A stretch of 64,000 bases of DNA from an uncultured Gammaproteobacteria bacterium. Lineage in GTDB: Bacteria > Patescibacteriota > Microgenomatia > JALYQM01. Location: assembly GCA_964535655.1 (NCBI GenBank), contig CAZHTP010000006.1:1532-65531 (forward strand). Direction: 5' to 3'. A model generated the notes under the pieces. It was not told the DNA's origin, made no database searches, and saw only the letters and a list, made by a program, of their open reading frames with translations. The position numbers were made by a program, and so were the translations under genes. Shown piece after piece: positions 890 to 51,550 of the stretch (position 1 is the stretch's first letter; every line of letters starts with the position of its first letter).

Positions 890-986
890 GTACTAAAGCC
901 GACCTTCTTTGCCTGACCTTTGAGTTGGCAAAGTAGAGCTTTAAATTCCGAGCAAAGTCGAGGAATTAAGCGTGTCGGCGTAGTAC
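890..986 (+). repeat. Structured ~97-bp intergenic element, copy A. Nested hairpins and terminal inverted repeats.
   Basis: Outer stem gtactaaagccgac/gtcggcgtagtac. Conserved inner stem cttctttgcc...ggcaaagtag, a second hairpin, then ttaagcgtgtc. Same architecture as the element at 19155-19253. Confidence 0.5.
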
Positions 987-1022: not shown

Positions 1023-1256
1023 ATGACCTATACATTAGACATTATTTTAAACGAACAAGAAAGCACTTTAACCAAAATCATTACCACCATTCGCAAATTA
1101 CAAGGCAACGTCCAACTCTTCCACATGGAGAAAGAGCCAAACACAGCAAATGCCTTTATTCAAGCGGAAATAGCTAATGTTAGTTCAATTAACCTACTCG
1201 AAAAATCATTAAAGAAAATACAAGGAGTACAAGAAGTATGCAATACTACACTATAA
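1023..1256 (+). CDS. ACT-domain protein, likely acetolactate synthase small regulatory subunit (short IlvM/IlvN-like form)
   Basis: 77-aa ACT-like fold immediately downstream of ilvB. RBS aaaggagacc precedes the ATG. Confidence 0.5.
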   Translation: MTYTLDIILNEQESTLTKIITTIRKLQGNVQLFHMEKEPNTANAFIQAEIANVSSINLLEKSLKKIQGVQEVCNTTL

Positions 1257-3061
1257 AATGTTTTAATTGTCACAAAGCCACCTCTCAAAATACGATTGAA
1301 ACCAATTGTCCCGACTGCAATGGACCACTTACAATCAAATACGACGAGGATGCGCTTAAACAAAAAGTTAACCTGCACCTTCTTCGCTCAGCACCAATCC
1401 AATCATATAAATACTTAGACTTCTTCCCTTTAGATAATAAAAACAACCTCGTCTCACTCAACGAAGGCAATACACCCCTCTACTCAGTCAAAAAAGTTTT
1501 CCCAGAATTTCCCAACGTCTATATAAAATACGAAGGAGCAAACCCAACTGGAGCATTCAAAGATCGCGGCAGTTTTGTCGAACTTAATAAAGCCAAAGAA
1601 ATGGGGGCAAAAGCTGTAGTTGTAGCATCAACTGGCAATATGGCCGCATCAGTATCTGCTTATGCATCTCAAATCGGTGTACCTTGTTACGTTTTTATCC
1701 CCGAAGGAACCCCTCAAGGCAAATTAGCCCAAGCCATCGCCTTCGGCGCTAAAGTAATTCAAGTTCGAGGCACATATAATGATGCTCAACGTCTCGCCGA
1801 AGAATCAGCCAAAAAATTTGGCTTCTTCCTATGTGGTGACTATGCTTTCCGGGCAGAAGGCCAAAAAAGTATCGCCTACGAAATTGTTGAACAACTCAAT
1901 TGGCAAGCGCCAGACTATGTGTTTGTTCCGGTTGGCATGGGTACTAATTTAGCTGGGGTTTTTCGGGGCTTTGAAGAATTTTATAATCTCAAACTTATCT
2001 CAAAAATTCCTCAATTCATCGCAGTACAAGCCAACGGTGCATCCCCAGCGGTAACGTCATACAATACCCAATCAAAGGAACTACAAAAAGTTACTAAGCC
2101 ACAAACCGTTTGCTCTGCAATAGCGGTAGGCAATCCACTGGACTATCCAAAGGTCGCCGACGCGCTCAATAAATCGAAAGGATATGCCGTGACAGTATCT
2201 GATGAAGCAACGTTAAAACAAGAAAAAGATCTCGCCGATAAAGAAAGCCTCTTTATTGAACCATCCTCAGCAACAACAGTTGCAGCACTTAATCAAATGA
2301 TCGAAGAAGGAAGAATTCGCCCATCAGATACTATCGCATTAATAGCAACAGGTAATGGCTTGAAAGATCCTCAAACACTCTTAAAAGTTTCAATCCAACC
2401 GCCAACCATTGAACCAATGCTTGAAGAAGTACAAAAAATTCTCGACACCAATACCTTCGCCGTTCGCACTCTCGGTATTCAAGATAAAGAAACCGTACTC
2501 TTTGACACAGCTCCAAGCGATACATCACTCAACGAAATTCTAAAAGATATCAACATCAATCTGTCCAAGGATAACAAAAAAGAGCTCCACAAGCATATCG
2601 TCAGCTTTTTACAAAAAGGCAAAAAAATAACAAAAGCCGATCTTATGTACATGCTTGAAAGCACGCTAAAAAATTCCGAAAAGTACAAACAGATCTTAAA
2701 AGTTAACGATTTTTCAGTTCAGACGACTAAACAGCAGCCGCCTCAGTCAACAGTAGATATTGAATTCCTCGGTAAAAAATTAACCGCTCAAAGTGAAGGC
2801 GTCGGCCCAGTTGATGCTATCATTAACGCGTTAACTCAAATCGTTAACGGCAAAGGCGACTTTCACTGGAAACTTATCGATTACAAAGTCGAAATTAATA
2901 ATGCGGGGACCAACGCGGTAGTTGAAGTTACCATGGTACTTGAAGATCAAGACAAAAATAAAGTCGTTGAAGTAGCCTCCTCACCAGACATTATCGTTGC
3001 CAGTGTCGAAGCTTTTGAAAAGGGATATAATGCATTATATTGGAAGAATCATAAATCATAA
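1238..3061 (+). CDS. Threonine synthase-like PLP enzyme with N-terminal zinc ribbon, fused to a C-terminal LeuA-type allosteric (LeuA_dimer) domain
   Basis: N-terminal CxxC...CxxC ribbon. PLP-lysine motif NPTGAFKDRGS and ASTGNMAAS. C-terminus carries GVGPVDAIINAL, LIDYKV and SPDIIVASVEAF, typical of the LeuA regulatory domain. Confidence 0.7.
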   Translation: MQYYTIKCFNCHKATSQNTIETNCPDCNGPLTIKYDEDALKQKVNLHLLRSAPIQSYKYLDFFPLDNKNNLVSLNEGNTPLYSVKKVFPEFPNVYIKYEGANPTGAFKDRGSFVELNKAKEMGAKAVVVASTGNMAASVSAYASQIGVPCYVFIPEGTPQGKLAQAIAFGAKVIQVRGTYNDAQRLAEESAKKFGFFLCGDYAFRAEGQKSIAYEIVEQLNWQAPDYVFVPVGMGTNLAGVFRGFEEFYNLKLISKIPQFIAVQANGASPAVTSYNTQSKELQKVTKPQTVCSAIAVGNPLDYPKVADALNKSKGYAVTVSDEATLKQEKDLADKESLFIEPSSATTVAALNQMIEEGRIRPSDTIALIATGNGLKDPQTLLKVSIQPPTIEPMLEEVQKILDTNTFAVRTLGIQDKETVLFDTAPSDTSLNEILKDININLSKDNKKELHKHIVSFLQKGKKITKADLMYMLESTLKNSEKYKQILKVNDFSVQTTKQQPPQSTVDIEFLGKKLTAQSEGVGPVDAIINALTQIVNGKGDFHWKLIDYKVEINNAGTNAVVEVTMVLEDQDKNKVVEVASSPDIIVASVEAFEKGYNALYWKNHKS

Positions 3062-5888: not shown

Positions 5889-6664
5889 CGATTACGCTCA
5901 CGACTCACAAATTGGAATGTTCCAATTACCAAAAAAATCAAGCCAGTTCCACAAATAACCAACAAATTAATCCATACTGGGAAAAGTACAATTTTATCGT
6001 AAGAAGGCGTACCCACATAATAAATACCTCGCAGCAAATCTACCGCATACCGCATTGGCGAGATTAATGACAAAATATTTAAAGGTGGGGGTAATACTTT
6101 GATCGGATTAAAAATTCCAGCCAGGAAGAACTGTGGGAAAATCACAAAGGGGAAAATCTCTCGTGCCGATCGCCCACTTCCCAAGTTAGAAATAACCAAA
6201 ATCCCAAATGCTCCACCAAAAAAGCAGCAAAGCAACATAAATGGAACAAGTTGAACTAGTTGAATAAATTCAAATGGAATTTGCATAACAAATCCAAACA
6301 GGATAATGCCAATCACCTGTAAGAAGGCCACAATCGACTCACCGAGTATTTTCCCAACAATAATTGAATAACGGGAAATTGGCGAAACAAAAATTTCCTG
6401 CGAAAAGTCCTGTTCGCGATCCTCAGTTAATGAAATTATCCCCGCCGCAGTAGACTGAAACAAAGTCTGCCCAATAACACCAATAAAGGTAAACAGCAAA
6501 AAATTATAACCCAGCTCTTTCCCAATATTCGCCTGCAAACTACCACCCAAAACGCCAATAAATATAATAGGAAAAATAAACGTCGCAATAATTCGCCCTC
6601 TATCACGCAGGAATTTCAATAAGTCTCGATACGCAATAGCAATAACTGCCTGAACTTCCTTCAT
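5885..6664 (-). CDS. ABC-2 type transporter permease
   Basis: Six-TM profile. Four-bp overlap with the upstream ATPase gene. Confidence 0.7.
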   Translation of the reverse strand: MKEVQAVIAIAYRDLLKFLRDRGRIIATFIFPIIFIGVLGGSLQANIGKELGYNFLLFTFIGVIGQTLFQSTAAGIISLTEDREQDFSQEIFVSPISRYSIIVGKILGESIVAFLQVIGIILFGFVMQIPFEFIQLVQLVPFMLLCCFFGGAFGILVISNLGSGRSAREIFPFVIFPQFFLAGIFNPIKVLPPPLNILSLISPMRYAVDLLRGIYYVGTPSYDKIVLFPVWINLLVICGTGLIFLVIGTFQFVSRERNR

Positions 6665-9449: not shown

Positions 9450-10543
9450 CCAGAAATTTTATCGAGAACTTTGCCAGTAAAACTTTTTTCAGATTTAATC
9501 ACCGCTCCATTTGCAGCAGAAATAGTCAAGTCCTTTTCAATAGAAATCGGAATAAACCAAAGTATTTTTTTATCTTTTACTCCATGAATACGATAAACTA
9601 ATTGCCCATTAGCCATTTCAAGTCGAAATACATTGGTAACACCAGCAAGCTCCTTAGAACCAAGTGTCGCCCCCGACTCTCCTTCAATTCGATCAATTAC
9701 CCCATCCTTTTGTAGCCCTTCAATCGCCTTATTCGGCAACAATGTAATCGTTTTATTCCCATCAGGAGTAGAAACCGACAAAACATTTGTCTGCAGATTA
9801 ATCGAGACAGGAAGGTTTGTTTTAGCACCAACATCGCTCTTAAACAACACTAATGAGTTACCACTCGCAGAAGCAATTTTAATTTGATCGTTACCTTCTT
9901 TATCTTCCAAAGTTAACACATCATCCTCAAGCATCAAGTCATCTATAGTACTATCCTCTCCTGGCCCCAAAAGGCGTAATCCATCCTCACTAGATTCAAC
10001 TTCAATCTCTCTCTCCTTTTCTAAACCACTAGAAGACACATCTTCCTTTGCAGCAGCAGCATCAAGATCGTCTAGTTCCTGTAATACCTTGTCCGAGATT
10101 CCAAATGAATCATCAGATCCTTTACTCTCTGCTCTCTTGGTAGGAGTTACCGTAGCAACTGGTTTAGTAGTAGACACAGTACCGCTCGACGATTGAGGGG
10201 AGGTTAAAGCTTTTGACTCCGTTGAAGCTTTAGGAGTTGATTGGCTTGAACCACCCGATGAAGATCCGCTCCCCGAAGAACCACTCCCCGAATTCTCAGA
10301 TTTTCCTTTACCGCTATCATCGCTATCTATTGAATCACCAAGAACATGTCCACTCCGTACATAATTAACATGTCCATTGCGATCAATTTCCCAAGCAGCC
10401 TGAGCAAATGTAGGGGAAACAAGCACAGTCAAAAGAATGAACAAAATAAAATACCCAAAGTAATAAGACGTTTTACTTTTCATACTACAATAGTAAAAGC
10501 CTACGGAAATATTGTCAAATCGACAAAGTTGCAAGGAAATCAC
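9446..10543 (-). CDS. Secreted Ser/Gly-rich hypothetical protein
   Basis: Signal peptide and low-complexity SGSGSS tract. Confidence 0.5.
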   Translation of the reverse strand: MISLQLCRFDNISVGFYYCSMKSKTSYYFGYFILFILLTVLVSPTFAQAAWEIDRNGHVNYVRSGHVLGDSIDSDDSGKGKSENSGSGSSGSGSSSGGSSQSTPKASTESKALTSPQSSSGTVSTTKPVATVTPTKRAESKGSDDSFGISDKVLQELDDLDAAAAKEDVSSSGLEKEREIEVESSEDGLRLLGPGEDSTIDDLMLEDDVLTLEDKEGNDQIKIASASGNSLVLFKSDVGAKTNLPVSINLQTNVLSVSTPDGNKTITLLPNKAIEGLQKDGVIDRIEGESGATLGSKELAGVTNVFRLEMANGQLVYRIHGVKDKKILWFIPISIEKDLTISAANGAVIKSEKSFTGKVLDKISG

Positions 10544-18061: not shown

Positions 18062-18400
18062 ATGGAAAAAGAACCTTCTCCTGAAAACAGCACTTCAAGT
18101 CCATCTACTGGAGGTAGTTTTATCACTCTTCAAAAAGCCATCGAGCTCGGTGAATACGAGCCAATGGTGTTAGCCAGATTTGATGAGTGGCACAAATTAA
18201 GTATCCATGCACAGTTCCAACTGGTACGAAAAGGCCTAGATAATCGTGAACATCAAATAGTTAGCGAATGGGCTGAAGTAAACAACGTGCTGGATTTTAG
18301 CAAAAAGCCTGAATTACAGCCAGTACTCCGCAATCTAGAAGCACAACGAAAAAAGATACTACGTGATCGCGAGCGCCTGTATATAGAGTTTACAAAATAG
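18062..18400 (+). CDS. Hypothetical protein
   Basis: 112-aa ORF followed by hairpin caaggagagacattccttg. Confidence 0.4.
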   Translation: MEKEPSPENSTSSPSTGGSFITLQKAIELGEYEPMVLARFDEWHKLSIHAQFQLVRKGLDNREHQIVSEWAEVNNVLDFSKKPELQPVLRNLEAQRKKILRDRERLYIEFTK

Positions 18401-18514: not shown

Positions 18515-19180
18515 CTACACTCTTTTATATTGAATATACAAAACATACGGCAAAATACTGCCTAAATTTAAGCATCCTGCTAAAATAAACAAAGTCATGA
18601 AACCAAATTGATGTGCAACTAACCCACCAGCAAAAGCCGTCAGCGCCATACTAAACATCGCCAGAGCGTCCTGAATACTCCATTCAAACGCTTCCTTATG
18701 AGGATCAAGATGAGAAGAAAAAAGAGAGTTTTTTGCTGGCGAGGCAACTCCTAAACCAAATCCAGCCAACGCATAAAACAAATACACCATGAAGGAAGTA
18801 GTACTAAAAGCAAAACCAAAATAGGCTAAACTCATCGCCGAAATCCCAAAAATACTAAACACAAATTTAGTAAGGTCGCCGGAATTGAGCAGCAACCTAC
18901 CACTAATAAGTTCAAATACAACGCGTGACATCAAATAAATACTATAAGCAAAGGCCGCAGTTTCAATATTTCCGCCTTTAAGTGTAACTGCATAGAGCGC
19001 AAAAATAGGAGTTATAGCATTCCAAGCCGACCACAACATCATCTCGGATAAAATAAACACCTTAATTACTGGATCCATCTGGAAATGCGACGGCGATTTA
19101 CCCAAGAAAATCTCTTTAATCATTACTAGTAGTTTAGCAAAGCCATCGAGGAAAGAGTATATGGTGACCTTCTTTGCCAA
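18515..19180 (-). CDS. MFS transporter, C-terminal 6-TM half only. Likely truncated or a pseudogene.
   Basis: 221 aa with six TM helices resembling MFS TM7-12. The annotated 5' end lies inside repeat element B. Confidence 0.4.
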   Translation of the reverse strand: MAKKVTIYSFLDGFAKLLVMIKEIFLGKSPSHFQMDPVIKVFILSEMMLWSAWNAITPIFALYAVTLKGGNIETAAFAYSIYLMSRVVFELISGRLLLNSGDLTKFVFSIFGISAMSLAYFGFAFSTTSFMVYLFYALAGFGLGVASPAKNSLFSSHLDPHKEAFEWSIQDALAMFSMALTAFAGGLVAHQFGFMTLFILAGCLNLGSILPYVLYIQYKRV

Positions 19181-19253
19181 ACCCTAAACGGCAAAGTAGC
19201 GCTTCTTAACGCGCTATATACATATAGCGCGTTAAGCGTGTCACCATATACTC
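19155..19253 (+). repeat. Structured ~99-bp element, copy B (MITE-like or small structured RNA)
   Basis: Perfect 14-bp terminal inverted repeats gagtatatggtgac/gtcaccatatactc. Inner cttctttgcc/ggcaaagtag identical to copy A. A 32-bp perfect palindrome. Confidence 0.5.
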
Positions 19254-19275
19254 GTCCGAGTTGGTTTTGAAACGC

Positions 19276-19884
19276 TTAATACCCTAAAACTTCCTTCACC
19301 AACACAACAGTCGCCCTATTGCGATCAGCATTAACAATCAGAATTTTATTCACATTACTGCCAGGAACGCCATATGCTTTTTGTGCACGAACACTCTCAA
19401 GCGGCAAACTATGCTCATAAATACGCTTCATTCCCTCATCCATATCTTTAACCAACTTCTGCGTACCAACAACATACACCACATGCCCGGCTCCATACGC
19501 ATAAGAAGCCAACTGACTCCCCGTTCCCGAAGCAATCAGTAGCTGCCCCGATTCAGTAACCGCGTGCACACTACCTACAACCCAATTCGGAGTACTACGC
19601 AGTTTACGAATTTCATCCCCTTGAGTTGTATGATCTAAAGCGAAAATTTCTTCGTGTGCAGCCTTATAACGACCAGATTCACGAATTTCCTTAGCAATAC
19701 CAGTTGTTGCCAAAGTCTCCGATGTGCTATCAAAAACCTGCTCGCCTTCAGGAATAACTTCAAAAACAATCCGTTTTGCATCCTCACCGTTCTCAGCAAC
19801 TTTTACCACAAAACCATGCTCTTCAAGAGCAGCAACTGTAGCTTGCAAACGTTCATCACTTGCAAGTGTAGTCCAATCAGACAT
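19276..19884 (-). CDS. LUD (DUF162) domain protein, LutB/LutC-like
   Basis: LUD-domain-like sequence pattern. Likely start at MSDW. Confidence 0.55.
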   Translation of the reverse strand: MSDWTTLASDERLQATVAALEEHGFVVKVAENGEDAKRIVFEVIPEGEQVFDSTSETLATTGIAKEIRESGRYKAAHEEIFALDHTTQGDEIRKLRSTPNWVVGSVHAVTESGQLLIASGTGSQLASYAYGAGHVVYVVGTQKLVKDMDEGMKRIYEHSLPLESVRAQKAYGVPGSNVNKILIVNADRNRATVVLVKEVLGY

Positions 19885-21008: not shown

Positions 21009-21745
21009 CTAAGATTGGAGTAAGTTATGCCAATCTTCAAAAAATTTAGCTAGTCCTTTATCGGTGAGCCTATGAGAAATAGTAAAAGATTGCCACTCAG
21101 CAGAAAGAGCAACTTTTTCGTATGCAATTTTTTTCAATTCAGAATTTTCCTTTCCACCATGTACAGGCATTCCCTGCTCCTGCCAATTCTTAAGTACATT
21201 TAAGGGAACAGTAACACACCGTTCTCACCAATATCATCAAGCCGCCCTATAAACGGTGACAAAAATACGTCTCCCCTATCAGCACCGCCAGTTGCAGCAT
21301 ACACAGCTGCTCCTTGTCGCTGCGAAAAAACCAAGGTCATATTGACGCGCATTTTCTCAGCAATACTTTTCTCAGCAGCTGTAAGTCCAGCAGCGATCGC
21401 AGGATATTTAACATGTGCATTTGGGATCCATTGAAAAAATTCTGCGCCCTGATAAAACAACAGGTCAGCGCTTGAAGAACTATCGGCATCAACTTCAATT
21501 GAAACCGATCCATTAGGAATAAGTCTTGAGATTTCAGTCACAATCTCTTTATACAAAGCAAGAATTTCTTCCTTGGAGTACTTTTTTCCATCAGCTCGAG
21601 CTGCCACAATTTCCGGGTGTTTAACCACCAAACTAGGATTCGTTGTTTGACCATCTAAAAATCCTAACAGTTGCAAAGCTTCTTTGGTACCTGCAGGGTT
21701 GCCACTATCCAAAAATATTTTAGTGGTAAGCGCAGCAGGTCGCAT
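21009..21745 (-). pseudogene. tal: Transaldolase/fructose-6-phosphate aldolase family gene interrupted by a -1 frameshift near 21200
   Basis: N-terminal part (21200-21745) matches FLDSGN...GQTTNPSLV and SPFIGRLDDIGENG. The C-terminal part ...HRLTDKGLAKFFEDWHNLL is in another frame (about 21009-21215). Confidence 0.6.
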
Positions 21746-30059: not shown

Positions 30060-31152
30060 ATGAAAAACACTCAAATTGCTATTATTGGATTAGGATACGT
30101 CGGCCTTCCTCTTGCGCTACTTGCAACAAAAAAAAGATATAGCGTTACTGGGATAGATTTAGATTCTCAAAAAGTGCGAAAAATTAATAATAAGATCTCT
30201 CCTTTCAAAGACGAAGAGATTCAAACCAACCTTACTAAATATCCTTTTACAGCATCAACAAATACCAATTCTCGAAAAAAAATCTAAGCTAAAAGCAGGA
30301 AAAGATTTCTACATAGCTCATTGCCCGGAACGCATTGACCCAGGAAACAAAAAATGGAATGTTGAAAACATTAACCGCATTGTCGGAGGATATGATACTA
30401 TCTCAACTCAAAAAGCAGCACAGTTTTATCGCTCAATCATTACTGGACAAGTTACAGAAATGAGTTCTCTCAAAGAAGCAGAAGCGGTAAAAGTAGTAGA
30501 AAATTCATTCAGAGATGTTAATATAGCCTTTGTAAATGAATTAGCTCAATCCTTTCACGAAATGGGGATCGATGTTGTTAATGTTATTAACGGCGCAGCA
30601 ACCAAACCATTCGCCTTTATGCCCCACTATCCAGGCTGTGGTGTAGGAGGTCACTGTATTCCAGTTGATCCCTATTACCTCATTGAAGAGGCCAGGAAAA
30701 AAGGCTTTGAACATGATTTTCTACGTCTCGCGCGCAGAATTAACAGTAATATGCCGCATTACACTATCAAGATACTCAAAGAAGGATTAAATCAAATTCA
30801 AAAATCCGTATCAGGAACTAAAATAGCAATCCTAGGTGTTTCCTATAAAGCAAATATTGACGATTGTCGCGAAAGCCCCTCCTTTGAAATTATAAAATTG
30901 ATTAATACTTTGGGAGCAATAACTAAAGTATACGATCCATATGTACCGCAACACTCTACAGTTAACACTCTCTCAGAGGCACTTAACGACTGTGAAGCCA
31001 TTGTTCTAACAACAGCACATAATGAATTTAAAGAGCTAACCGTGGCTGAGCTTCACAATAAGGGAATAAGGTTAGTTATCGATGGGCGGAATTGTTTGGA
31101 CAAAACGACGTATCTATCGGCTGGAATCGAATATCGAGGAATCGGCTGCTAA
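30060..31152 (+). pseudogene. UDP-glucose/GDP-mannose 6-dehydrogenase family gene split by a frameshift inside an A8 homopolymer (30275-30282)
   Basis: N-terminus GLGYVGLPLA (frame 0). Middle AHCPERIDPGN...NRIVGGYD and C-terminus GCGVGGHCIPVDPYYL in frame +1. Removing one A restores the frame. Confidence 0.65.
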
Positions 31153-39425: not shown

Positions 39426-40112
39426 CTAGTCAATGAACTCAAACTTCCTAATTTTCTCCTTATCAGCATCAAGGGCGATCCCCTTGTGGGGTCGCTCATG
39501 ATTAATGGAACGGATAATGAGAACCGACCAAATACCAGCTACAATCGATATAACGGCTGTCACAAGATTGACTGGCAATGAATAGCTTGTAATACTTACC
39601 AACCAGCTACCAATTGCCGCAATCATGAGCAGACCGATAATCGATGTGAATGCATCCTTAGCAATGCCGCCGATATTTGTAGACGGGAAAGGAGTAGAAA
39701 TTCGTTCGGCACCCAAGGTCTGCAAGAAAAGTTCAATCCTGTAGCGAACCTCAGCCTGTTGCCCAATCTTCTTATTGATCGCGGACCACTCCTTTGCTCG
39801 ATTATGGAAGTAGACAAGCGCAAGGAACGCACCAAGCGTTACTGCAGGAACTGGTAACTGGATCGGGGACACTGATGTAGAGAGCGGCTGTGCAACAAGA
39901 AACACGCCAAGGGTGAGGATCTTCTCCCAGGATTCTTTAACGATATCCTGTCGATCACTCTTTCCAGACAGAATCTCATCAAACATTTGTTGATGCGATT
40001 GAATCAATAATTCAATCTGCGCCGCGTTTGGCTGTTGAAGAGTTTCCATTGTACACTCCTTTTGATTAAATAACGGGAGTTTCGGTGGTTGTGTCTGCGT
40101 CGTAAAGCTCAC
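39426..40112 (-). CDS. Membrane hypothetical protein
   Basis: C-terminal multi-TM region. Upstream operator-like repeats. Confidence 0.4.
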   Translation of the reverse strand: MSFTTQTQPPKLPLFNQKECTMETLQQPNAAQIELLIQSHQQMFDEILSGKSDRQDIVKESWEKILTLGVFLVAQPLSTSVSPIQLPVPAVTLGAFLALVYFHNRAKEWSAINKKIGQQAEVRYRIELFLQTLGAERISTPFPSTNIGGIAKDAFTSIIGLLMIAAIGSWLVSITSYSLPVNLVTAVISIVAGIWSVLIIRSINHERPHKGIALDADKEKIRKFEFID

Positions 40113-40127
40113 AACAACACGCTAAGG

Positions 40128-40340
40128 GATGAAGTGACATACTTCGTCACATTCACGCTCAACGCGTCATTTTAGCCTACTTGGCCAACACCCAAAATGA
40201 GCTCAATTCAATTCAGCCCATATTGGGTGCCGTCATGTAGGATTAGATTTAAGCTTTACACTTTAAATGTGCAACTAGCTCAAAATGAGCCAGGCTCAAA
40301 CTCAGTAAAGCTTATTTAAGCTCAAATATGAGTTCAAGCA
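40128..40340. promoter_or_regulatory. Cluster of palindromic GCTCA-N3/4-TGAGC-like motifs and GTGAC-N7-GTCAC
   Basis: gtgacatacttcgtcac, agctcaaaatgagcc, ggctcaaactcag, agctcaaatatgagttc. Confidence 0.3.
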
Positions 40341-41029
40341 CTTTGTATTTTAGCACAGAATATCACTTTTGTAAATACTATAGGATATTATCGTAATTGT
40401 TATGATTTACCCCTTGGATGGACTAAAACACATGGTTCAAAACCACTTTTTACAGGAGTACTAACCAAGTTTCCCTGAAGCACCAATTTCTTGATAGATA
40501 CCCTTCACCTTCTCCATCTCTTTTGAAAATACCCACACTCCCTCATACTCTTCCACTTTGCCCGATGCATAAAAGCTACTCAATCCTCCGCCATCAAGTT
40601 CACACAAACCACAAAAGCACTAACAAAACACATTCGATACCGAAAGATACATCAATTATTTGAAATTACCACAAAATGAACCATTTTCCCACCAAGAGCG
40701 AGTATCATCCGAGTATCTCGTAATCCCTACTCTACAAACAGCTGTTACATGAGAATTTTCTACAAATACACCGAGTACTTTATTGTTTTGATCATTATTT
40801 GCATATATCCCTATACCAGTTTTTGGCTCCTGAACTCGGCAAGATGACAAGGCAAGCCCAACAAAAACAATCGCAAAATTCTTCTTAAAGTGGGATTTCC
40901 TCCCAAAAGACTAGGGTGCGTAACTTCTGGAGAGATTTGTTCAGGTTGAGACATAACGTGATAATTATAATATAATCACAACACAAAGTCAAAGTATACC
41001 CAGAGGCACAATTGAGACTAAGGCGATAA

Positions 41030-42124
41030 TTAACCATTAATTATTCCTAGTAATTTATAAAATGCATACAACTTTGCACCGGCATTTCCTTTTTGATCTA
41101 GTATTTCCTCAACAATCCCATCTTTCTGCAATTGTTCCACAAATCTAACAGCCGTCAATCGAGCCTTTAATCCTAATTTTTCTTGCAATTTTGGGATAGT
41201 AAATATTGGTGAATCAAACATGAAATCAATAAATCTACTCATGTACGGGGATTTGGATGTTTCATACTTTGACTGAATTTCTTTGTGCAAAGTTTTGATA
41301 CTTTCTATCAGATGCAGTGTCTCTTTCGCTTGCTCTGTAATTGCACTAAAAAAGAATCTTAACCAGCCTTCATATTCCCCAGAGCTATCCACTTTCCTAA
41401 GCGCCTCTCTGTATTCATCAGGGCGCGCTTCAAAATACCCGCTACTATAAACTATAGGTAGGGATAAATCACCTTTATAATGCAGAACCAAAGGAATTAA
41501 TAATCTCCCAATTCTACCGTTACCATCTTCAAACGGATGAACCGCTTCAAATTGGTAGTGTATTACTCCAGCCTTCACTAATGGCATATCCCCTTCGTCA
41601 TCCTCTATATATTTCAAAATATTGTCCATATAGGCTGGTATATGAATATGTTCAGGCGGAACATACAGGGCTTTTTCAATTGGATCTGTTGCTCTTTCGG
41701 CAATCCAAACTTTATCTGAACGAAAAGCTCCCAAAGCTCCTTTATGTCGCACACCTTTTAATAATGTTCCATGTAATGATTTAATTAGTTGAGAAGTTAG
41801 CTGACCTCCAACTTTAATTCCATGTATTGCATCAAGCATTGCAATTCTATAGTTAGACACTACCGGGGTATCTGAAAATGTCGGCTTTCCACCTGCATCG
41901 TAAATATATATATCCGAGGAAGTACTCTGTGTCCCTTCGATTTTAGAGCTAACTGCCGCTTCTCTAGCGACGAGAGGGCCGATCAAGTGCATTGCATTCT
42001 TCACTCCACCCTGCGAACCTTGAAGTAGACCTATAGCATATTGAGCTGTAGCTAATTCTTTTGCAAACTTACCATAGTCAAGTTTTGGGGGTAAATATTC
42101 AGGTAAATGATGTTTTATCTTCAT
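41030..42124 (-). CDS. Fic/DOC family protein (AMPylation/phosphocholination toxin-like)
   Basis: Fic motif HPFEDGNGRIGRL. 364 aa with a C-terminal winged-helix-like region. Confidence 0.85.
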   Translation of the reverse strand: MKIKHHLPEYLPPKLDYGKFAKELATAQYAIGLLQGSQGGVKNAMHLIGPLVAREAAVSSKIEGTQSTSSDIYIYDAGGKPTFSDTPVVSNYRIAMLDAIHGIKVGGQLTSQLIKSLHGTLLKGVRHKGALGAFRSDKVWIAERATDPIEKALYVPPEHIHIPAYMDNILKYIEDDEGDMPLVKAGVIHYQFEAVHPFEDGNGRIGRLLIPLVLHYKGDLSLPIVYSSGYFEARPDEYREALRKVDSSGEYEGWLRFFFSAITEQAKETLHLIESIKTLHKEIQSKYETSKSPYMSRFIDFMFDSPIFTIPKLQEKLGLKARLTAVRFVEQLQKDGIVEEILDQKGNAGAKLYAFYKLLGIING

Positions 42125-42486
42125 TTCAGCTATAATATCACAGTATATCAGAATGTAAAGATTCTGTTATATACAATCAAAAGTGTATAACACTAGTGAT
42201 ATATCCGTTAATTCTGTATATCAGTATTACGAAAATATGATACAAACTTCCAAACAGTGTATCTTTCCTGTTATAGAGAAACATTATATGGAAAAGGCCG
42301 GCGGGGTCTGGGATTGTGCGATAAAGTGAATGATTGATGCTTGTGGCATCCCTCATGCTTCGTCTGCACGCTCCGCTTTTGACCCGACCGGCCTTCTCTC
42401 TGCTCGACACGAATGTCTCTCACAACGCCACGCTTTCGCGCAGTCCGCTCATGCAGTTGCATGACGTTGTGAGAGACTTCAAATTA

Positions 42487-42924
42487 CTATTGGGTCGCCA
42501 CGCAAGGGCGCCGATTGTAGATAGGCAGAATGGTGACCAGCCCTTGGCGAACGTCAGCGGCAGCAGCGACTTGCAGGGACTCTACGTATCCGGTACAGCC
42601 GTTGATGTTAATGCGTTGGACGTAGTAGTCGCCATCCTGGATCACGTTGAACAACTCGCCACCTGCGGACTCGTAGACTGAGTCGATGTCGTTGTAGTCG
42701 ATAACGCGGCCACTGCTGTCGGTGATCTCCGTGTTGGTGGCATTGACATGGATGAGTCCATTGGGTGCAGCATCGTCGCTGAGATCGGCCAGGTCGACCT
42801 GCTGGGTGGAGGTGGGGTTCTGGATCTGTGTAATCAGTTTGCTCGGGTCGAGGTTCACCGCGCCGCCATTCTCTACGTTAATGACGAGGTTGTTTGAATT
42901 GTTTTGGGAAAAATAACCCTCCAT
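42487..42924 (-). CDS. Hypothetical protein in a GC-rich patch. Frame assignment uncertain.
   Basis: Local GC is far above the genome background. Long ORFs appear on both strands. Confidence 0.25.
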   Translation of the reverse strand: MEGYFSQNNSNNLVINVENGGAVNLDPSKLITQIQNPTSTQQVDLADLSDDAAPNGLIHVNATNTEITDSSGRVIDYNDIDSVYESAGGELFNVIQDGDYYVQRININGCTGYVESLQVAAAADVRQGLVTILPIYNRRPCVATQ

Positions 42925-43331
42925 TTATAATCGGTGATGCCGATAGGCTCATTGCCCTATTACAGAGTGACGATGCCAATCATACCATAGCTGTGAGGGT
43001 TGCTCAGAAACTAGTCGAGCAACAGACCGAGGTACTATTCCCAATGACAGCCATTATTGAAGCAGCCACAACCTTACAACGACGGTTAAACAGCCCGCAG
43101 TTAGCAGAGATTGTGCGTGACCAGGTGATTGCTGGGAAATTGCTCATCGAAAAAGTCGAGAAAGACACGCTACAAAAAGCCAGCCAGCTTTTTGACCCAC
43201 TTGGCTCCAAACAAAATACGCTCCTTGACGCTATTGTAGCCACGGTTGCTCGCAAGTATGCTGCCGCTGGTATCTTTTCCTTTGACGGGTGGTACACCAA
43301 ACAAGGTTTCCTGCTGATACCACAGATGTAA
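42894..43331 (+). CDS. PIN domain protein (VapC-like RNase)
   Basis: C-terminal LLDAIVATVA...FSFDG pattern of a PIN catalytic Asp-containing helix. Confidence 0.5.
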   Translation: MNCFGKNNPPFIIGDADRLIALLQSDDANHTIAVRVAQKLVEQQTEVLFPMTAIIEAATTLQRRLNSPQLAEIVRDQVIAGKLLIEKVEKDTLQKASQLFDPLGSKQNTLLDAIVATVARKYAAAGIFSFDGWYTKQGFLLIPQM

Positions 43332-43345
43332 GGGTCTCACGTCTT

Positions 43346-43412
43346 GTATAAAGTAGTCGTCCTTAAAGCGTATGTAATACATACCTTCTTTATCAGACTT
43401 GGCTGCCCTCAA
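43346..43412 (-). pseudogene. Short fragment homologous to peptidase E (57496-58158), residues about 36-55
   Basis: AKSDKEGMYYIRFKDDY vs AKSDKEGKYYTRFKDYY. About 85% nucleotide identity over about 48 nt. Confidence 0.5.
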
Positions 43413-43782
43413 CTTCTACTTGAAACCCACCATACATCATTCGCTTCATATCCACAGGCATCTGAAAATCTTTTAGTTCTGCCATCTGTTGTCCCATCTC
43501 TTCCATTACTTTCGCATTCACTTCATCACGATGCTCTTTTGATTTAAAGACAATAAATGAAAACCACACTGTCTCGCCGCTAGAAGCTCCCATGACATCA
43601 GGAAAAGCACGTGATTTCTCATCACCCATCTCTGCAGCCTTAAGGTCATTGCCACTACATTCATAGTATGCAAGTGCACCATTTTTGATCCATGAGTCTC
43701 TACCCATCTCAGCCATTTTTTTGTATTCTTCAGACTTATCTTTTGGAACAACGAGTACAAACCCATCCACATATTTTTCCAT
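43393..43782 (-). CDS. DUF1428 family protein
   Basis: YVDGFVLVVPKDK...YYEC...FIVFKSKEHRDEVNAKVM...MKRMMYGGF. Confidence 0.7.
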   Translation of the reverse strand: MEKYVDGFVLVVPKDKSEEYKKMAEMGRDSWIKNGALAYYECSGNDLKAAEMGDEKSRAFPDVMGASSGETVWFSFIVFKSKEHRDEVNAKVMEEMGQQMAELKDFQMPVDMKRMMYGGFQVEVEGSQV

Positions 43783-44018
43783 AATATTGACCTTTCTTTT
43801 ACTAAATCTGAATACAATTACATTATACTAAAAAAACCTAAATGTAGTAACTCAGTTGGCGCTAAAAAAGAGCCATTTCAAAACGGTATCCCGTTTCTGA
43901 ACGGTATCGGTATCCGATGCTCCCCCTAGTAAATACGCTTAGAACTTTTGACTACTCTATATTTCAGGTCCACTACTAGCTCTAGCAAAATAACAAACAT
44001 TTAGAGTAAACTATAATT

Positions 44019-45257
44019 ATGGAAAAAGGTAATGACTTAAATAACCTTGAAACTGGTAATCTGCAACCTCAACAAACCCAATCTGGCACAAAACAACAAT
44101 CAGTTAACGAAACTTTACCACAATCCCCACAACCCCAACCTAGTAAGAAATGGTTAATTCCAGGATTGATTGTCCTCGTCTTACTATCCGTTAGCCTTGC
44201 TGGTTATTTTGACTATCAAAACACTCAACCAAAAAAACAATCTAGTTCAATTCAACCAACACCCATATCTTCTACCCCTCAAGCTATGTCACCCACCAAT
44301 ACCCCTGTAAACAAACCGGAATTAAGCAACAAGCTTATTTCATATACTACAAACGAAGGATTGGTTGTGTCTGACATTGATGGAAATAATAAAAAGGTTG
44401 TTTTTACAGTAAAAGACCCTTATTTTTCTTGGGATTGGAACCCCAAGGCAAATGAAGTTGTTGCAAGTAATGGAATTATGAAAAATTTAGATACTGGCAT
44501 TGAAAAGAAAGTCCCAAGTGGTAGATGTCATAACTGGTCTCCTGATGGGAAAATGATTGCTTACGAAGGTTCGAGTGGTCTTTACTATGTTGAGGTAAGT
44601 AATCTTGCAAGCCCCATCAAAATTTCTGAGACTGGCGAGTTATGTGGTGGCTCCAACAGCGTTTTCCATTGGTCGCCAGATAGCAAATCCCTAATATACC
44701 TGACTAGTAATGGTGCTGGAATTACCAGCGAAGTAATTCACTCTATTATGAAGTATGACATTAACAGTCGGTCTACTACGAAAATATACCAAGATGAAAA
44801 AAGTTCTGGTCAAATTAGAACCCCATCAATTTCACCAGATGGAACAAAAGTGATGTTTATGATGAGTGTTGATAAAGGGAACAATTCTCAATTGACTGAA
44901 AATGTTTACACTATAAACATAGATGGTTCAGGCCTCACTCAACTTACAAATTTAGAGGCAGAAGGTGAATATGGTCAAGGTATAGGTATGCCTATTTTTA
45001 GCACGGATAGTAAGAGCATCTTCTTTGTCAGTAATAGCACTATAAGCAAATATCAAGGTTTAACAATGTTGGATATTCAACCAAAAACGATTACTCGTCT
45101 GGCAAACGAGACTGCAAACGCATATTCGCCCGCAACTGTTTCTCCTGATGGTAAATATGTAGCATATGACGCTTTTGGTAAAGTAGTAGTAGTCAACTTG
45201 CAAACAAAAGACAAAACTCTAATCAGCAACGCAGGGTTTGTGTTGTGGCAAAAATAA
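44019..45257 (+). CDS. TolB-like beta-propeller (PD40/WD40-like repeat) protein with N-terminal TM anchor
   Basis: Repeated WSPDGK / SPDGT / VSPDGKYVAY motifs. Confidence 0.7.
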   Translation: MEKGNDLNNLETGNLQPQQTQSGTKQQSVNETLPQSPQPQPSKKWLIPGLIVLVLLSVSLAGYFDYQNTQPKKQSSSIQPTPISSTPQAMSPTNTPVNKPELSNKLISYTTNEGLVVSDIDGNNKKVVFTVKDPYFSWDWNPKANEVVASNGIMKNLDTGIEKKVPSGRCHNWSPDGKMIAYEGSSGLYYVEVSNLASPIKISETGELCGGSNSVFHWSPDSKSLIYLTSNGAGITSEVIHSIMKYDINSRSTTKIYQDEKSSGQIRTPSISPDGTKVMFMMSVDKGNNSQLTENVYTINIDGSGLTQLTNLEAEGEYGQGIGMPIFSTDSKSIFFVSNSTISKYQGLTMLDIQPKTITRLANETANAYSPATVSPDGKYVAYDAFGKVVVVNLQTKDKTLISNAGFVLWQK

Positions 45258-45371
45258 TTCCTCAAAAATAAGCTCCTTACTTTTTAATCCACAAGATTAA
45301 CTCCAAGCAGTATAATTGCATTGGAGCATAGTAATGAAAAAAGTAACGAAACTACCATAAGTTGACCTGGA

Positions 45372-45969
45372 TTTAGATAAGGTTAGCGATAATAAAAATA
45401 TCACTTTAGAAAAACTGAACCAGTTGTCCCTTGAAGAACGAGTCAAGTTTATTGAGCCAATTGTTCAGGCAAATAATGAGCAGTTTAGTAGACTTGCTAA
45501 TACAATTGCCGAAGTAGCCAACTTTGGTAAAACCTTTAGCAACCTTGCTGCCTCGATAAGATTACCTATTATTGACATTTTAGATAACCTTAAGCTCCCA
45601 GAGTTATCACAGATATCCGATTTTTATAGGGGTATTGATAGCAAAGCTATAAGTTTTGAAAGATATGACCCGCCAGTGACGATTAAAAAATCCAAATCGG
45701 AACTTGAGTTAGATGACGAAAGAAAAAAATTAACAGAAAAAAAGAATAAACTACTTTCCAATAACCAGGATTGGAAGCAAAAAGCTTCGAACTTCTTTTT
45801 AACGCTTATTGATGCTAAAAACAAATTTCTAGAAGCAAATCAGGAAAAACAGTACGCTTCTGTGAGACGTGTATCTTCGAACCTCTTACTACTAAACAAA
45901 AGTGTTATTGTAGAGGACAAAACGCCGTATTCATATCTCTTAAATTATCAATCTGTACTATTGGGCTGA
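45372..45969 (+). pseudogene. 3' remnant of a large serine recombinase (coiled-coil/C-terminal region only)
   Basis: C-terminal about 80 aa and DNA (gcttcgaacttcttttta) nearly identical to the C-terminus of the recombinase at 54903-56443. No catalytic N-terminal domain. Confidence 0.65.
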
Positions 45970-46058
45970 GAGCGTTTCAAAACGGGCGCTTGGCATAGGT
46001 AGATTAGGGGATGATGTAAGGATAAATAAGTAGTTTCACTAGGTGAAGAGAAATATAA

Positions 46059-47013
46059 GATAGAATAATAAGATATGAAAAAAAGTATGGGTGTCCAACA
46101 TGTAAGAGTAACGAAGTAATACGCAAAGGGGTACGAGAAGGAAGAGAACGGTATAAGTGTAAAGGATGTGGCAAATGGTTTTCAATTAACAGGAAGGCAA
46201 AAGTAAGTAATAAGCAACTGTTACTTGAACACATTGATGGGTATTCTTTTCGTACCCTAGCACTTCATCACAACAGTTCAGCGGCAACAATATACAGACA
46301 GTGCAAAAAAGCATGGGAAGAATTACCGCATTGTGCAGACATAACGAGAAAGTACTGCAACCGGTTTAGTGGGACATTACTGGTTGATGGGAAGTATGTA
46401 AAAGTAAAAGGATACGAGCGAGAGATACCCGTGTTGTATGGAGTAGACTACTATACACATGACATACCAACATATTTGTTTTCAATAGGAGAGAATTACC
46501 AAACATGTGATGAATTTTTTCGAGACTTACGGTTACTCAATTATCCACTCCAAAATCTTGTGTGTGATGACAACAAAAATATATACCAAGCGTGTAGTCA
46601 CACATACCCGAAGGTAGTAACACAACTGTGCTTGAATCACTACAAAGAAAATCTAAGAAGGATTCTTCAATCACGAAGACAAGGAAATGAGTACTATGCA
46701 AAATTTATGTATGAAATAACGCAACTATTTGCCAAGAAGAGGTCGCGTGTTGAGTTCAATACACATGCAACAAAGAGTAGATATGCTGTGTGCTCACTGG
46801 TACAACAAGGAAATACCTCAGACAAATAATTTAATAGAGGGATTAAATTCACATTTGGAAGCTCGTTTAAAGACTATCCAAGGTTTTGAAACATTTGACC
46901 ATGCAGATAATTGGTTAAACAGTTATTTCCTCAGAAGAAGGCTCAGACCATTTACTGACTGCAATAAAAAGTTTAAAGAACTAAACGGAAAAATATCTTT
47001 ACAGCAAACATGA
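46059..47013 (+). mobile_element. IS1-family-like DDE transposase gene, disrupted. Frame change near 46780 and no in-frame ATG at the 5' end.
   Basis: N-terminal Zn ribbon CPTC...CKGC, HTH, DDE-like LLVDGKYVKV / VCDDNKN. C-terminal NNLIEGLNSHLEARLK in +1 frame. Confidence 0.6.
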
Positions 47014-47073
47014 GACTGTCAAGTCTTTTGTGTAAATGGGATTTAGATTCATAAATATTTTGTTAACCTCCCC

Positions 47074-47517
47074 TCAAACATAATGGCAAACTGAGAGATA
47101 GCAATAAAGTTTCTCGACAAATAAGTCATTTATTGAATGCACGCTTACATTAACTGACTTATCCTTAAAAGAATACTCCTTTATGCTGTACTCGCAAATA
47201 GTAGAAGGAACAACATAAATATCAATGTGCAATATTTCGTTTTTATTATCATAAAAAGTAATTCGGTTATCCTTATAAAGACTGGATCGATTATGGGCAG
47301 TATCCCCATCGCAGTATAAAAATCTCAATGAATTCTTAGTAAGATATTCTAAGGATTTACTATTCTCAATCGTTAAATCTACATCGTAGGAATAGTTACG
47401 ATTGAATTGAAAGATTTTTACAATGGCAGTCCCTCCTTGCACATGGACAACATCTTTTAAGAGAAAGTCTGAGTAGAGATTAAATAGAAAGCAATTAATA
47501 TATTGTTCTGTTGTCAT
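47074..47517 (-). CDS. Pol-beta-fold nucleotidyltransferase domain protein (AbiEii/minimal NTase-like), possibly truncated
   Basis: QGGTAIVKIF...SYDVDLT motif (GG[ST]x9-13DxD). Ends near the IS. Confidence 0.45.
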   Translation of the reverse strand: MTTEQYINCFLFNLYSDFLLKDVVHVQGGTAIVKIFQFNRNYSYDVDLTIENSKSLEYLTKNSLRFLYCDGDTAHNRSSLYKDNRITFYDNKNEILHIDIYVVPSTICEYSIKEYSFKDKSVNVSVHSINDLFVEKLYCYLSVCHYV

Positions 47518-48308
47518 AATGTATCGATAAAAGCAGTTATTTTATTTAGCGAATTAGAGTCAATTATTCCTTTAGTTTTTTTGGTATATATTAAGTCATA
47601 TAAATTAAAAAAGAATTTTTGAGTACGAATCATTTCTTCAAAACATAAAGGAGAATTATATTCCTGTATAAAAATATCTTCTAACTCTGCTACAAGATTA
47701 GTTAAATGGAAGAATTGAACAACATCAGAAATGCCAACATCTATTCTACAGTCAGTCCAATCAATAAATTTAACCTCATCCTTTTTAGTAAAAATTATAT
47801 TATTACCGCTTAAATCACCGTGAACAATCGATAAAGAATAAGCAACTTGCTCTAATTCAGTCCTTAGCTCAACAAGGTTAAACATGGCCTTATCTATATT
47901 CAAGATCGACTTTACCCATTCTTGGCTATCTCCAACAATTAAGTCAAAAACTAAAATAGGATCGTACTTTTTATCTTTATATATAAAATTATCGAAGTGA
48001 TTATAAGTATTATCGCTTAGAAAAAATCTATGTATTTGCGAGAGCGACTGAGCAATTTGCCTAATCTGATGTTCTGATGGATTAGGGATGGAGTTATACA
48101 TATCACCTTCAATAAACTCTTCAAGGAAGCCATCGGGTGTATAGCTCTCACAATACGGCACATGTCCAGTCTGAATCAAAAGTCGTTGAATAAAATACTC
48201 AGTTTCTTGTACTGATTTATCTTGAACACTTTTATGTACCCAACGCTTACCGTCTTTTGTAATAAATTCGTTATTATGGGGGTTATCAGTAAATATTATT
48301 TTAGCCAT
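47514..48308 (-). CDS. Aminoglycoside-phosphotransferase-like (APH/choline kinase fold) small-molecule kinase
   Basis: SIVHGDLSGNNIIF catalytic loop and FIDWTD motif. Confidence 0.7.
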   Translation of the reverse strand: MAKIIFTDNPHNNEFITKDGKRWVHKSVQDKSVQETEYFIQRLLIQTGHVPYCESYTPDGFLEEFIEGDMYNSIPNPSEHQIRQIAQSLSQIHRFFLSDNTYNHFDNFIYKDKKYDPILVFDLIVGDSQEWVKSILNIDKAMFNLVELRTELEQVAYSLSIVHGDLSGNNIIFTKKDEVKFIDWTDCRIDVGISDVVQFFHLTNLVAELEDIFIQEYNSPLCFEEMIRTQKFFFNLYDLIYTKKTKGIIDSNSLNKITAFIDTL

Positions 48309-48942
48309 TTATTGTGAATTGAGTGTTAAACCATTTCCTGAAATCTTTATATCCATTGTCGTAGTCAATATATTGATAAAAATTGCCGCCAAAGTCTTTC
48401 ATAAATTCTCCATTTTTTGGCTTATCATCAATAAAAAGGGTTTGCTCTGGCTCTATTGAAAGCTTGTCTAAAACGTATCTTAAAAATTTACCATCATTAT
48501 GTGATTTAAGCATCTGATATTTTGAAGAAGAAAAAATATTATCAAAGTGATAATTAAGCTCATTAAGTGGGACAAAAATATTATCAAAGACATCCATATT
48601 ATCTGTAAAGATTGAAACAGTCACGCCATTAGTGCGAAGTTCTTTAGCAAATTTAAACAAGTTACTATTCATTTTCATTTTCTTAACACTATCAATTAAG
48701 CTCTTATTTAAAAAGTCCTCGTCCACTTGGATTTGCTCAGATACAATTGAATGGATATCTCTGTACGATTTATCTCCGATCATCCAAGTCTGTATTAATG
48801 GCCATGCTTCTTTACTAAAAATTTTACTTATAATTTTTTCTTTTATATCTGATTTCTTTGGAGAAATAGTGCTATAAAACCTACCGTTCGACAAAACCCC
48901 ATCAAAATCGAATAATACAGACTTTATGTTATTGTTTTTCAT
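48301..48942 (-). CDS. HAD superfamily hydrolase/phosphatase
   Basis: Motif I VLFDFDGVL. C-terminal FIDDKPKN motif IV. Confidence 0.7.
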   Translation of the reverse strand: MKNNNIKSVLFDFDGVLSNGRFYSTISPKKSDIKEKIISKIFSKEAWPLIQTWMIGDKSYRDIHSIVSEQIQVDEDFLNKSLIDSVKKMKMNSNLFKFAKELRTNGVTVSIFTDNMDVFDNIFVPLNELNYHFDNIFSSSKYQMLKSHNDGKFLRYVLDKLSIEPEQTLFIDDKPKNGEFMKDFGGNFYQYIDYDNGYKDFRKWFNTQFTING

Positions 48943-48946
48943 ATAA

Positions 48947-50194: not shown

Positions 50195-50279
50195 TTGTCA
50201 GCATAATAGACTTAAGCTTTGTTGAAGTCAAGGCTATAAATAAGCTATTTCAATATAAAAATCACTGAAATTAAAATTA

Positions 50280-50489: not shown

Positions 50490-50588
50490 TACTTTACAAC
50501 GTAATGAAAGTCGGGTTTAATGAGTATAGCGTCAGACGCTATATTTGAGTTATAATCAAGCGTGAAGAAGAACAAGTCACAATAACCT

Positions 50589-51401: not shown

Positions 51402-51550
51402 CTTCACCAATTATCAACCAGCATACACAGCTACAGAAGCTCTTAGGCCATTCGTTTAGTAGTTTTAACAAAATAAAATTTCATAATAAGTTAAAGTAAT
51501 TATCTTATGATCATCTCAGAGCAATATTTAAGTCTCTGAAAACTCCTGCC

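Follow-up and report, generated by a model that had tools for sequence, protein, structure and literature searches.

A clade-restricted family of strand-specific three-way-junction elements in intergenic spacers of Patescibacteria

Two intergenic spacers of a Patescibacteria genome hold copies of a structured element that is a real, previously uncatalogued and clade-restricted family of about 125 to 132 nt. Both copies were found in the window, the whole 64,000-nucleotide stretch of DNA analysed here, at the places given in the original prediction and on the + strand. Selection keeps the fold and some 45 core nucleotides, and most letters of the stems change freely in pairs. The element is very probably functional as the fold of one specific single strand with a sequence-specific partner. 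Tentatively, we take it to be a structured RNA module that is recognised by such a partner, was inserted or duplicated in the ancestor of the clade and has since been passed on vertically. We infer the nature of the folding molecule (RNA rather than single-stranded DNA), the existence of a partner and the way in which the element spread. Patescibacteria have tiny genomes, in which very few non-coding elements have been described.

Two copies in the window

The pattern CTTCTTTGCC-N(8-20)-GGCAAAGTAG occurs twice in the window and in none of 100 dinucleotide shuffles, and TTAAGCGTGTC, a segment already reported as shared, is matched exactly in copy A and copy B. Because this paired-core pattern is missing from the shuffles, and because the copies have a common fold and paired changes in stem P1, the two-copy observation is real and not due to chance. 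Its extent needs correction. A length of about 97 bp had been proposed, but the element measures about 125 nt in copy A and 132 nt in copy B, with the outermost helix P0, a G.A loop and a 3-bp helix all lying outside the stem first claimed. The full extent was recognised once three, and then four, sequences were compared. A covariance model (CM) search with filters off finds no third paralogue in the window. A DNA-uptake sequence was considered and rejected, as the 10-mer is not enriched.

Copy A is laid out as follows.

875-999, + strand: copy A, whole element, 125 nt (match to model CM R2, 107.5 bits, E 2e-26)
875-887, + strand: 5′ side of the outer stem; P0 is the wobble G875 plus CTTTC (876-880), followed by the tandem G.A loop GAA (881-883), P0.5 GCT (884-886) and the bulge G887
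888-903, + strand: 5′ arm of P1, AAGTACTA-AA-GCCGAC; its partner is 974-988, with compensatory changes relative to the other copies
904-936, + strand: P2 hairpin, CTTCTTTGCC, a 13-nt loop with ACCTT, then GGCAAAGTAG; U.U mismatch 906/934
937-973, + strand: junction A937, the P3 hairpin (GCTT, TA bulge, AATTCC, loop GAGCAAAGTCGA, GGAATT, AAGC), then junction G972 and T973
974-999, + strand: 3′ side, with the 3′ arm of P1 (974-988), P0.5 AGC (989-991), GA (992-993) and P0 GAAAGT (994-999)

By sequence reading and by the minimum free energy (MFE) fold, 875-887 pairs with 989-999 (AGC, GA, GAAAG and T). Copy A lies between the stop codon (858-860) of an ilvB-like gene for a TPP enzyme and the start (1023) of a gene for a 77-aa ACT-domain protein. 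Both genes are on the + strand and the element is sense to both; a + strand transcript is therefore expected there, inside a co-directional gene pair. The MFE of copy A is -49.3 kcal/mol on the + strand and -43.7 kcal/mol on the - strand, and the fold of P1, P2 and P3 alone reaches -35.3 kcal/mol (z -4.5). An identical copy A is present in Logan contig L001 (SRR8893623). The next gene in this region (1238-3061, + strand), whose start overlaps the end of the ACT gene, encodes a threonine synthase (PALP) fused to a LeuA_dimer domain, 607 aa in all; the fusion is widespread, with more than 6000 matches at E≤1e-30.

Copy B and its two neighbours are laid out as follows.

19138-19269, + strand: copy B, whole element, 132 nt (match to model CM R2, 139.2 bits, E 8e-35)
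19138-19168, + strand: 5′ side of the stem; P0 CAAAGCCATC (19138-19147), GA (19148-19149), P0.5 GGA (19150-19152), AA (19153-19154) and P1 GAGTATATGGTGAC (19155-19168)
19169-19199, + strand: P2 hairpin, CTTCTTTGCC, then AAACCCTAAAC, then GGCAAAGTAG
19200-19239, + strand: P3, with CGCTT, a CTT bulge and a perfect 15-bp palindrome (19205-19236); junction T19239
19240-19269, + strand: 3′ side of the stem; 3′ arm of P1 (19240-19253), G19254, P0.5 TCC (19255-19257), GA (19258-19259) and P0 GTTGGTTTTG (19260-19269)
18515-19123, - strand: half-size MFS gene, 202 aa, flanking the element and not part of it
19276-19884, - strand: LUD-domain gene, 202 aa, flanking

Positions 19138-19168 pair with 19240-19269. 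Copy B is antisense to both neighbours, which are on the - strand, and it nearly fills the spacer between them: 6 nt separate it from the LUD stop codon (19276-19278) and 14 nt separate P0 from the MFS start (19123). Its MFE is -66.9 kcal/mol on the + strand and -60.9 kcal/mol on the - strand, and P1, P2 and P3 together fold at -50.8 kcal/mol (z -11.4). A sequence beside the copy (TTAAGCGTTTC, 19269-19279) was considered as the remnant of a further, inverted copy and rejected, since it is the conserved LUD C-terminus plus stop codon and is also found in relatives that lack the element.

The MFS gene had been described as truncated at copy B. It is not: about 200 aa is the normal size in this family, and a database protein that is 100% identical has 202 aa and the start at 19123. 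Such half-size MFS_1 proteins form a large family in Patescibacteria, with more than 100 homologues of 190-240 aa. The Pfam alignment places residues 44-211 on profile positions 3-167, and the extension of the reading frame into copy B is an artefact of ORF listing. Copy B lies directly upstream of an extended -10 lookalike (TGnTAmACT), TGCTAAACT, which lies within 19124-19140 on the - strand and ends 7 nt before the MFS ATG. A similar motif about 7 nt before the MFS start is found in the related contigs L023, L024 and L025, and L022 has a matching TACAAT about 30 nt upstream of this start. These motifs suggest that the MFS gene may be transcribed from a promoter of its own, as a leaderless or near-leaderless mRNA. 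A 112-aa ORF without a Pfam match lies at 18062-18400 (+ strand), and L024 has a 112-aa gene at the same position.

Orthologues and element-free relatives

The 90%-identity protein clusters of MFS and LUD led to contigs L024 (ERR8482628) and L025 (SRR25018342). Each of the two has an orthologue of copy B, which again sits between LUD and MFS and has the same orientation. The covariance model CM R1, made from the two window copies only, scores the element of L024 at 66.7 bits. In the three species that share this site the flanking genes are 84-90% identical at the nucleotide level, with 90% for MFS between the window and L024 and 84-87% for LUD among the window, L024 and L025. Four-fold degenerate sites are only 52-65% identical. 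The window, L024 and L025 come from different species. Homologues of the flanking proteins carry the names of Patescibacteria, namely Levybacteria, Woesebacteria and Gottesmanbacteria.

The same spacers lack the element in more distant relatives. The spacer between the ilvB-like and ACT genes measures 162 bp in the window, 52 bp in L018 and 46 bp in a JGI contig, and in L021 the two genes overlap; ThrC of these relatives is 83% (L018), 81% (L021) and 81% (JGI contig) identical to that of the window. The LUD/MFS spacer measures 152 bp in the window, 37 bp in L023 (72% protein identity), 127 bp in L022 (80%) and 138 bp in a second JGI contig, which was compared by length only. A covariance model search with filters off finds none of the window's elements in 90 kb of these more distant relatives. 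Their element-free spacers indicate that the element was gained in a narrow lineage or lost elsewhere.

The LUD/MFS spacer of L022 (GCA_030154765.1, about 80% protein identity) holds a hairpin repeat of its own, about 70 nt long. Its two copies (6490-6556 and 9892-9958) lie 3.4 kb apart with 91% identity over 67 nt, and changes in one arm of the outer stem are compensated in the other (GTAAAATTTTTCT/AGAAAAATTTTAC versus GCAAACTTTTCT/AGAAAAGTTCGC). Kinship with the window's element was rejected, as there is no covariance model or BLAST similarity. The ilvB-like/ACT and LUD/MFS spacers are sites that accept hairpin elements.

Rfam 15 has no match to any part of the window at gathering score, gives only noise at E≤10 for the two copies and has no match at E≤1 for the orthologues in L024 and L025. 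This comparison covered the hammerhead, twister, twister-sister, pistol, hatchet and hairpin ribozymes as well as 5S, Y RNA and SRP. Exact-pattern scans of GTDB genomes and JGI metagenomes returned only chance matches in GC-rich coding DNA. These negatives are weak, because the patterns demanded GTAG and CTTCTTTGCC, or AAGCGTGTC, and were too strict for variants of the L024 and L025 type, which they would miss. Pattern scans of IMG/VR gave one chance coding match and were otherwise empty, and BLAST against phages and plasmids gave no match. None of the scanned collections returned the window's own copies.

Anatomy of the fold

The fold of the + strand is an irregular stem, about 30 bp long, that is capped by a three-way junction. 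Folded singly, all four sequences adopt this architecture, and RNAalifold recovers it on three of the four. The outermost helix, P0, has 5-10 bp and a different sequence in every copy, its arms being CTTTC, CAAAGCCATC, AGGTAGTC and GTGGTAGCC. Inside P0 come an invariant C-G pair, a tandem G.A / A.G (A.A in L024 and L025) and an invariant G-C pair; this G.A loop has CGA(A)G as its 5′ strand and C(G/A)AG as its 3′ strand. The adjoining 3-bp helix, P0.5, covaries (GCU:AGC, GGA:UCC, GAU:AUC and GAC:GUC) and is separated from P1 by a small bulge. P1 has about 14 bp, with a semi-conserved outer AGUA:UACU, a free middle and an invariant inner GAC:GUC. The only unpaired residues of the three-way junction are A, G and U. 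P2, with its 10 positions, keeps a pyrimidine-pyrimidine mismatch (U.U, U.U, U.C and U.U) and has a loop that contains ACCYU.

The third helix, P3, had been reported to differ completely between the two copies. This holds for its distal part, but the base is conserved and consists of GCUU:AAGC, a bulge of 2-3 nt and AA:UU. In copy A, L024 and L025 the variable distal part carries a second tandem-G.A motif of the form GAG...CGA. In copy B a 15-bp palindrome with a 2-nt centre takes its place, which looks like a recent rebuilding of the arm. Two further structural features were considered and rejected: a K-turn at the G.A loop, since the G.A pairs have the bulge on the wrong side, and kissing of the P2 and P3 loops (L2-L3), which is possible in copy A only.

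Covariation and selection

Covariation is found in every helix. When the two window copies are aligned on a conservative structure of 24 pairs, five pairs of P1 show double changes and none a one-sided change. In an alignment of four sequences from one narrow clade, which was fitted to a structure-based model and is biased to that structure, 96.1% of 181 cells over 46 pairs are paired; 28 of the 46 pairs have changed on both sides and one on one side only. None of 500 shuffles equals any of the pairing or covariation measures. When the 3′ partners are slid by 1-3 columns as a control, 34-42% of cells are paired and at most five pairs are double-changed.

The core stems had been called identical. 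They are exactly so in both window copies, but P2 and the base of P3 vary, with compensation, in the orthologues. In P2 a U-A pair has become C-G in L024 and A-U in L025, and at the base of P3 a C-G pair has become U-A in L025. GTAG is changed to GCAG in L024 and to GTTG in L025; given these compensated core changes, it is not conserved. Invariant columns number 45 of 143. The earlier argument that covariation reflects a selected secondary structure is thus supported, and it is strengthened by the orthologues from two other species.

Pairwise identity between elements is 50-62%, for paralogues and orthologues alike. This equality suggests that the free positions are near saturation and that the duplication that gave rise to A and B is probably at least as old as the speciation. 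An origin of the stems by insertion into existing palindromes was rejected, since it needs loop-less perfect 28-bp palindromes centred on GACGTC.

Strand asymmetry

The + strand folds more stably than the - strand in all four copies, by 5.6, 6.0, 6.4 and 12.3 kcal/mol. The + strand folds contain 10 G.U pairs, and their 1x1 mismatches are the pyrimidine pair of P2 and one U.U in P0 of copy B, with no A.C. The tandem G.A motif is conserved in the + reading only. Together, the stability, the G.U pairs and the mismatch pattern of the + strand indicate that one specific strand is under selection. This asymmetry argues against a palindrome of duplex DNA that is kept symmetric by template switching.

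GC skew is negative throughout the window (-0.06 to -0.27) and AT skew is positive, regardless of gene orientation and with no switch. By the usual rule, the uniformly negative GC skew makes the + strand, which is the folding strand, the C-rich lagging strand. Elements of the IS200/IS605 type use the lagging-strand template, the opposite of the C-rich folding strand here.

RNA module or mobile DNA

The candidates first listed were a small structured RNA, a REP- or MITE-like element and a recombination site. The list still includes both leading readings, RNA and mobile DNA, while the recombination site has become improbable. In the reading that we tentatively prefer, the element would be an RNA module with a sequence-specific partner, probably a protein, that recognises its junction, its G.A loop and P2. 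The RNA of site A would be made within the transcript of the ilvB-like/ACT operon. At site B it would need antisense transcription or divergent transcription from the MFS promoter region. Insertion or duplication in the ancestor of a small clade of Patescibacteria would have brought the element to its two sites, and its inheritance would have been vertical since.

Several features appear to favour RNA: selection at a fixed locus despite synonymous divergence, the G.U pairs together with the tandem G.A, the combination of a conserved centre with free ends, and the position of copy A in an operon. Other features tell against it. At site B the folding strand is antisense to both neighbours in all three species, and an independent + strand transcript there is putative. 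Moreover, the conserved sequence lies largely in Watson-Crick helices (P2, GAC/GUC and GCUU/AAGC), a pattern that is at least as typical of the read-out of a DNA hairpin by a protein. No sigma-70-type promoter or intrinsic terminator is detected at either copy on either strand, by a scan whose consensus does not extend to Patescibacteria promoters; an independent sRNA gene would have both signals, along with a transcript of its own. Covariation alone cannot settle between RNA and DNA, since compensatory changes are reported in REPINs and G-T pairs in REP stems.

A riboswitch or other cis-regulatory leader was rejected: it needs a fixed orientation upstream of a gene, and the element is sense at A and antisense at B. 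Orientation relative to genes is likewise unfixed across the family (sense in A; antisense in B, L024 and L025), which excludes a riboswitch. In a bolder form of the RNA reading, which we consider doubtful, the element would represent a new class of structured RNA with a function, about 130 nt long and mobile now or once, whose conserved junction, tandem G.A loops and exposed ACCYU loop would bind a dedicated partner or catalyse a reaction. By eye, the CU-rich GACCUUCUUU and the ACCYU segment look similar to the anti-Shine-Dalgarno end of 16S rRNA, and on this resemblance the element might even act on ribosome-binding sites.

The chief alternative to an RNA module, possible though we would not bet on it, is a non-autonomous mobile DNA of the REPIN/REP kind. 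Its + strand would fold as single-stranded DNA, an enzyme of the HUH/Y1 type or a similar one would recognise P2 and the junction and copy or move the element, and any RNA structure would be a by-product of co-transcription. The distribution suits this reading: two dispersed copies occupy short spacers between co-directional genes, one sense and one antisense to those genes but both on the same chromosomal strand, in spaces with no room for a promoter or terminator, of which none is detected. Relatives at 72-83% protein identity lack it in these spacers, and in L022 the place between LUD and MFS is taken by another hairpin repeat, about 70 nt long, whose outer stem also covaries. Compensatory hairpin changes (PMC3116915) and G-T pairs in REP stems (PMC3733652) are on record, and conserved helix sequence suits the reading of a DNA hairpin by a protein.

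The make-up of the element, however, fits mobile DNA of this kind poorly. Its interior is conserved and its P0 termini are free, the reverse of REPINs and MITEs, and it does not consist of two inverted REPs. Its GTAG takes part in base pairing and varies (GCAG in L024, GTTG in L025). A check for target-site duplications, proposed at the outset, found no direct repeat bordering either copy. Copy A differs from copy B as much as the orthologues differ (50-62% identity), which gives no hint of recent activity. Pairing at the fixed locus has been kept despite differences at 35-48% of four-fold sites, for which selection at that locus is needed. No Y1/HUH transposase is found by Pfam among the 63 ORFs of the window, and the folding strand is the C-rich one and not the lagging-strand template of the IS200/IS605 type.

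We think it improbable that the element is a folded single-stranded DNA or cruciform site for a recombinase or other DNA-binding protein, in principle like an integron attC site. Such a site would share the conserved structure, the free arms and the strand-specific fold, and a split gene for a large serine recombinase does lie in the window (54903-56440). Serine recombinases, however, act on duplex sites. The ends carry no R′′/R′ boxes (RYYYAAC / GTTRRRY), and the window ORFs contain, by Pfam, no integron integrase and no cassette array. The order of the flanking genes is the same in relatives with and without the element, so no trace of cassette exchange is seen.

A sub-case of the RNA reading is a new self-cleaving ribozyme or other catalytic RNA with an active site built from the junction core and the G.A loops. 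In its closed P1 with a three-way junction, and in having variable stems and a conserved core, the element recalls the layout of hammerhead-type ribozymes, which are likewise scattered, occur in either gene orientation and have no promoter of their own. Even so, we hold this to be highly improbable: the conserved unpaired nucleotides of the junction are few (A, G and U) and conservation is mostly in helices, there is no CUGAUGA/GAAA hammerhead core, no Rfam ribozyme family matches even at E≤10, and loop-loop complementarity is not conserved, the CUUUG/CAAAG of copy A being missing in the others.

Finally, chance similarity or a set of unrelated generic terminator hairpins, for which nothing speaks beyond the commonness of intergenic hairpins, can be set aside almost entirely: no matches are expected by chance, the covariance model scores reach 107-142 bits, the element is conserved at orthologous sites across species, and the generic terminator feared at first is contradicted by both copies, which have no U-tract, no terminator call and no terminator-like site on either strand.

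Other features of the window

A stretch of low GC content (0.34-0.38) at 40000-57500 is probably an integrated mobile or defence island. It holds genes for Fic (41033-42124), PIN (42894-43328), a fragment of a Mutator transposase (46431-46826), AbiEii (47077-47517), the split large serine recombinase (54903-55223 and 55250-56440) and Schlafen/AlbA_2 (56610-57506). A 55-nt direct repeat (43349-43403 and 57996-58050) is 82% identical between its copies, with a 38-nt core at 92%; a DUF1428 gene has one of them at its 3′ edge, and the S51 peptidase gene contains the other. Elsewhere, a UDP-glucose dehydrogenase ORF (30460-31152, + strand) has 230 aa and comprises the central and C-terminal domains only, its counterpart in L022 having 425 aa, and a transaldolase ORF (21200-21745, - strand) covers profile positions 1-167 of 285. 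These two short ORFs may reflect frameshifts or split genes.

Significance

With its conserved centre and free ends, the element reverses the layout of classical REP, REPIN and MITE repeats. If it is RNA, it represents a new RNA family that conserves non-canonical motifs and is open to biochemical study. As DNA, it would be a structured repeat with an internal conserved part that is presumably recognised, which bears on how hairpin enzymes define the ends of an element. In either case its covariance model can be used for mining Patescibacteria genomes.

Comparison with known systems

REPINs consist of two inverted REPs that flank a spacer, with conserved ends and a variable middle, and compensatory changes across their hairpin are reported to be common (Bertels & Rainey 2011, PMC3116915). 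A REP carries an unpaired terminal GTAG (or CGTC) tag beside a palindrome of 6-13 bp, and its stem is reported to include G-T pairs (Di Nocera et al. 2013, PMC3733652). The element resembles both in forming long intergenic hairpins of about 100 nt (as single-stranded DNA or RNA) with compensatory changes and G.T pairs and in belonging to a lineage-specific family. It also resembles them in lying between co-directional genes in either orientation, and long vertical persistence has been claimed for REPINs. In contrast to REPINs, its middle is conserved and its ends are free, and its top is a three-way junction in which P2 and P3 are unrelated in sequence. Unlike the REP tag, the GTAG of the element ends P2 in the window copies, where three of its four bases pair with CTTC. 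REP and REPIN systems usually come with a RAYT (Y1) gene and tens to hundreds of copies per genome. The element has two copies in the 64 kb of the window and Y1_Tnp is found in none of the 63 window ORFs; copy number thus appears low, and no RAYT gene is seen in the window.

MITEs such as Correia/CREE, ERIC, RUP and BOX are, like the element, small, non-coding, dispersed, structured when transcribed and found in operon spacers. They have conserved terminal inverted repeats and target-site duplications, however, and the element has neither. The similarity between the flanks of its two copies is marginal (p ~0.03) and is explained by the conserved loop beside P0. Integron attC sites share a conserved structure with free sequence, a strand-specific fold and a role for non-canonical or extrahelical features. 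They differ in having outer R boxes, a position at cassette boundaries and an integron integrase nearby, none of which the element has, and in being a simple bulged hairpin where the element has a stem with a conserved three-way junction.

Three-way-junction RNAs (hammerhead, aptamers of purine-type riboswitches and 5S rRNA) have in common with the element a closing helix, two hairpins, covarying stems and a conserved centre, and 5S rRNA is also of similar size. The element differs in that it has none of their core motifs and no Rfam match at E≤10, its junction is almost fully paired, and its closing stem, at about 30 bp, is unusually long. On this comparison, the element appears most REPIN-like in its location and distribution, and the way in which it is conserved comes closest to that of a small three-way-junction RNA.
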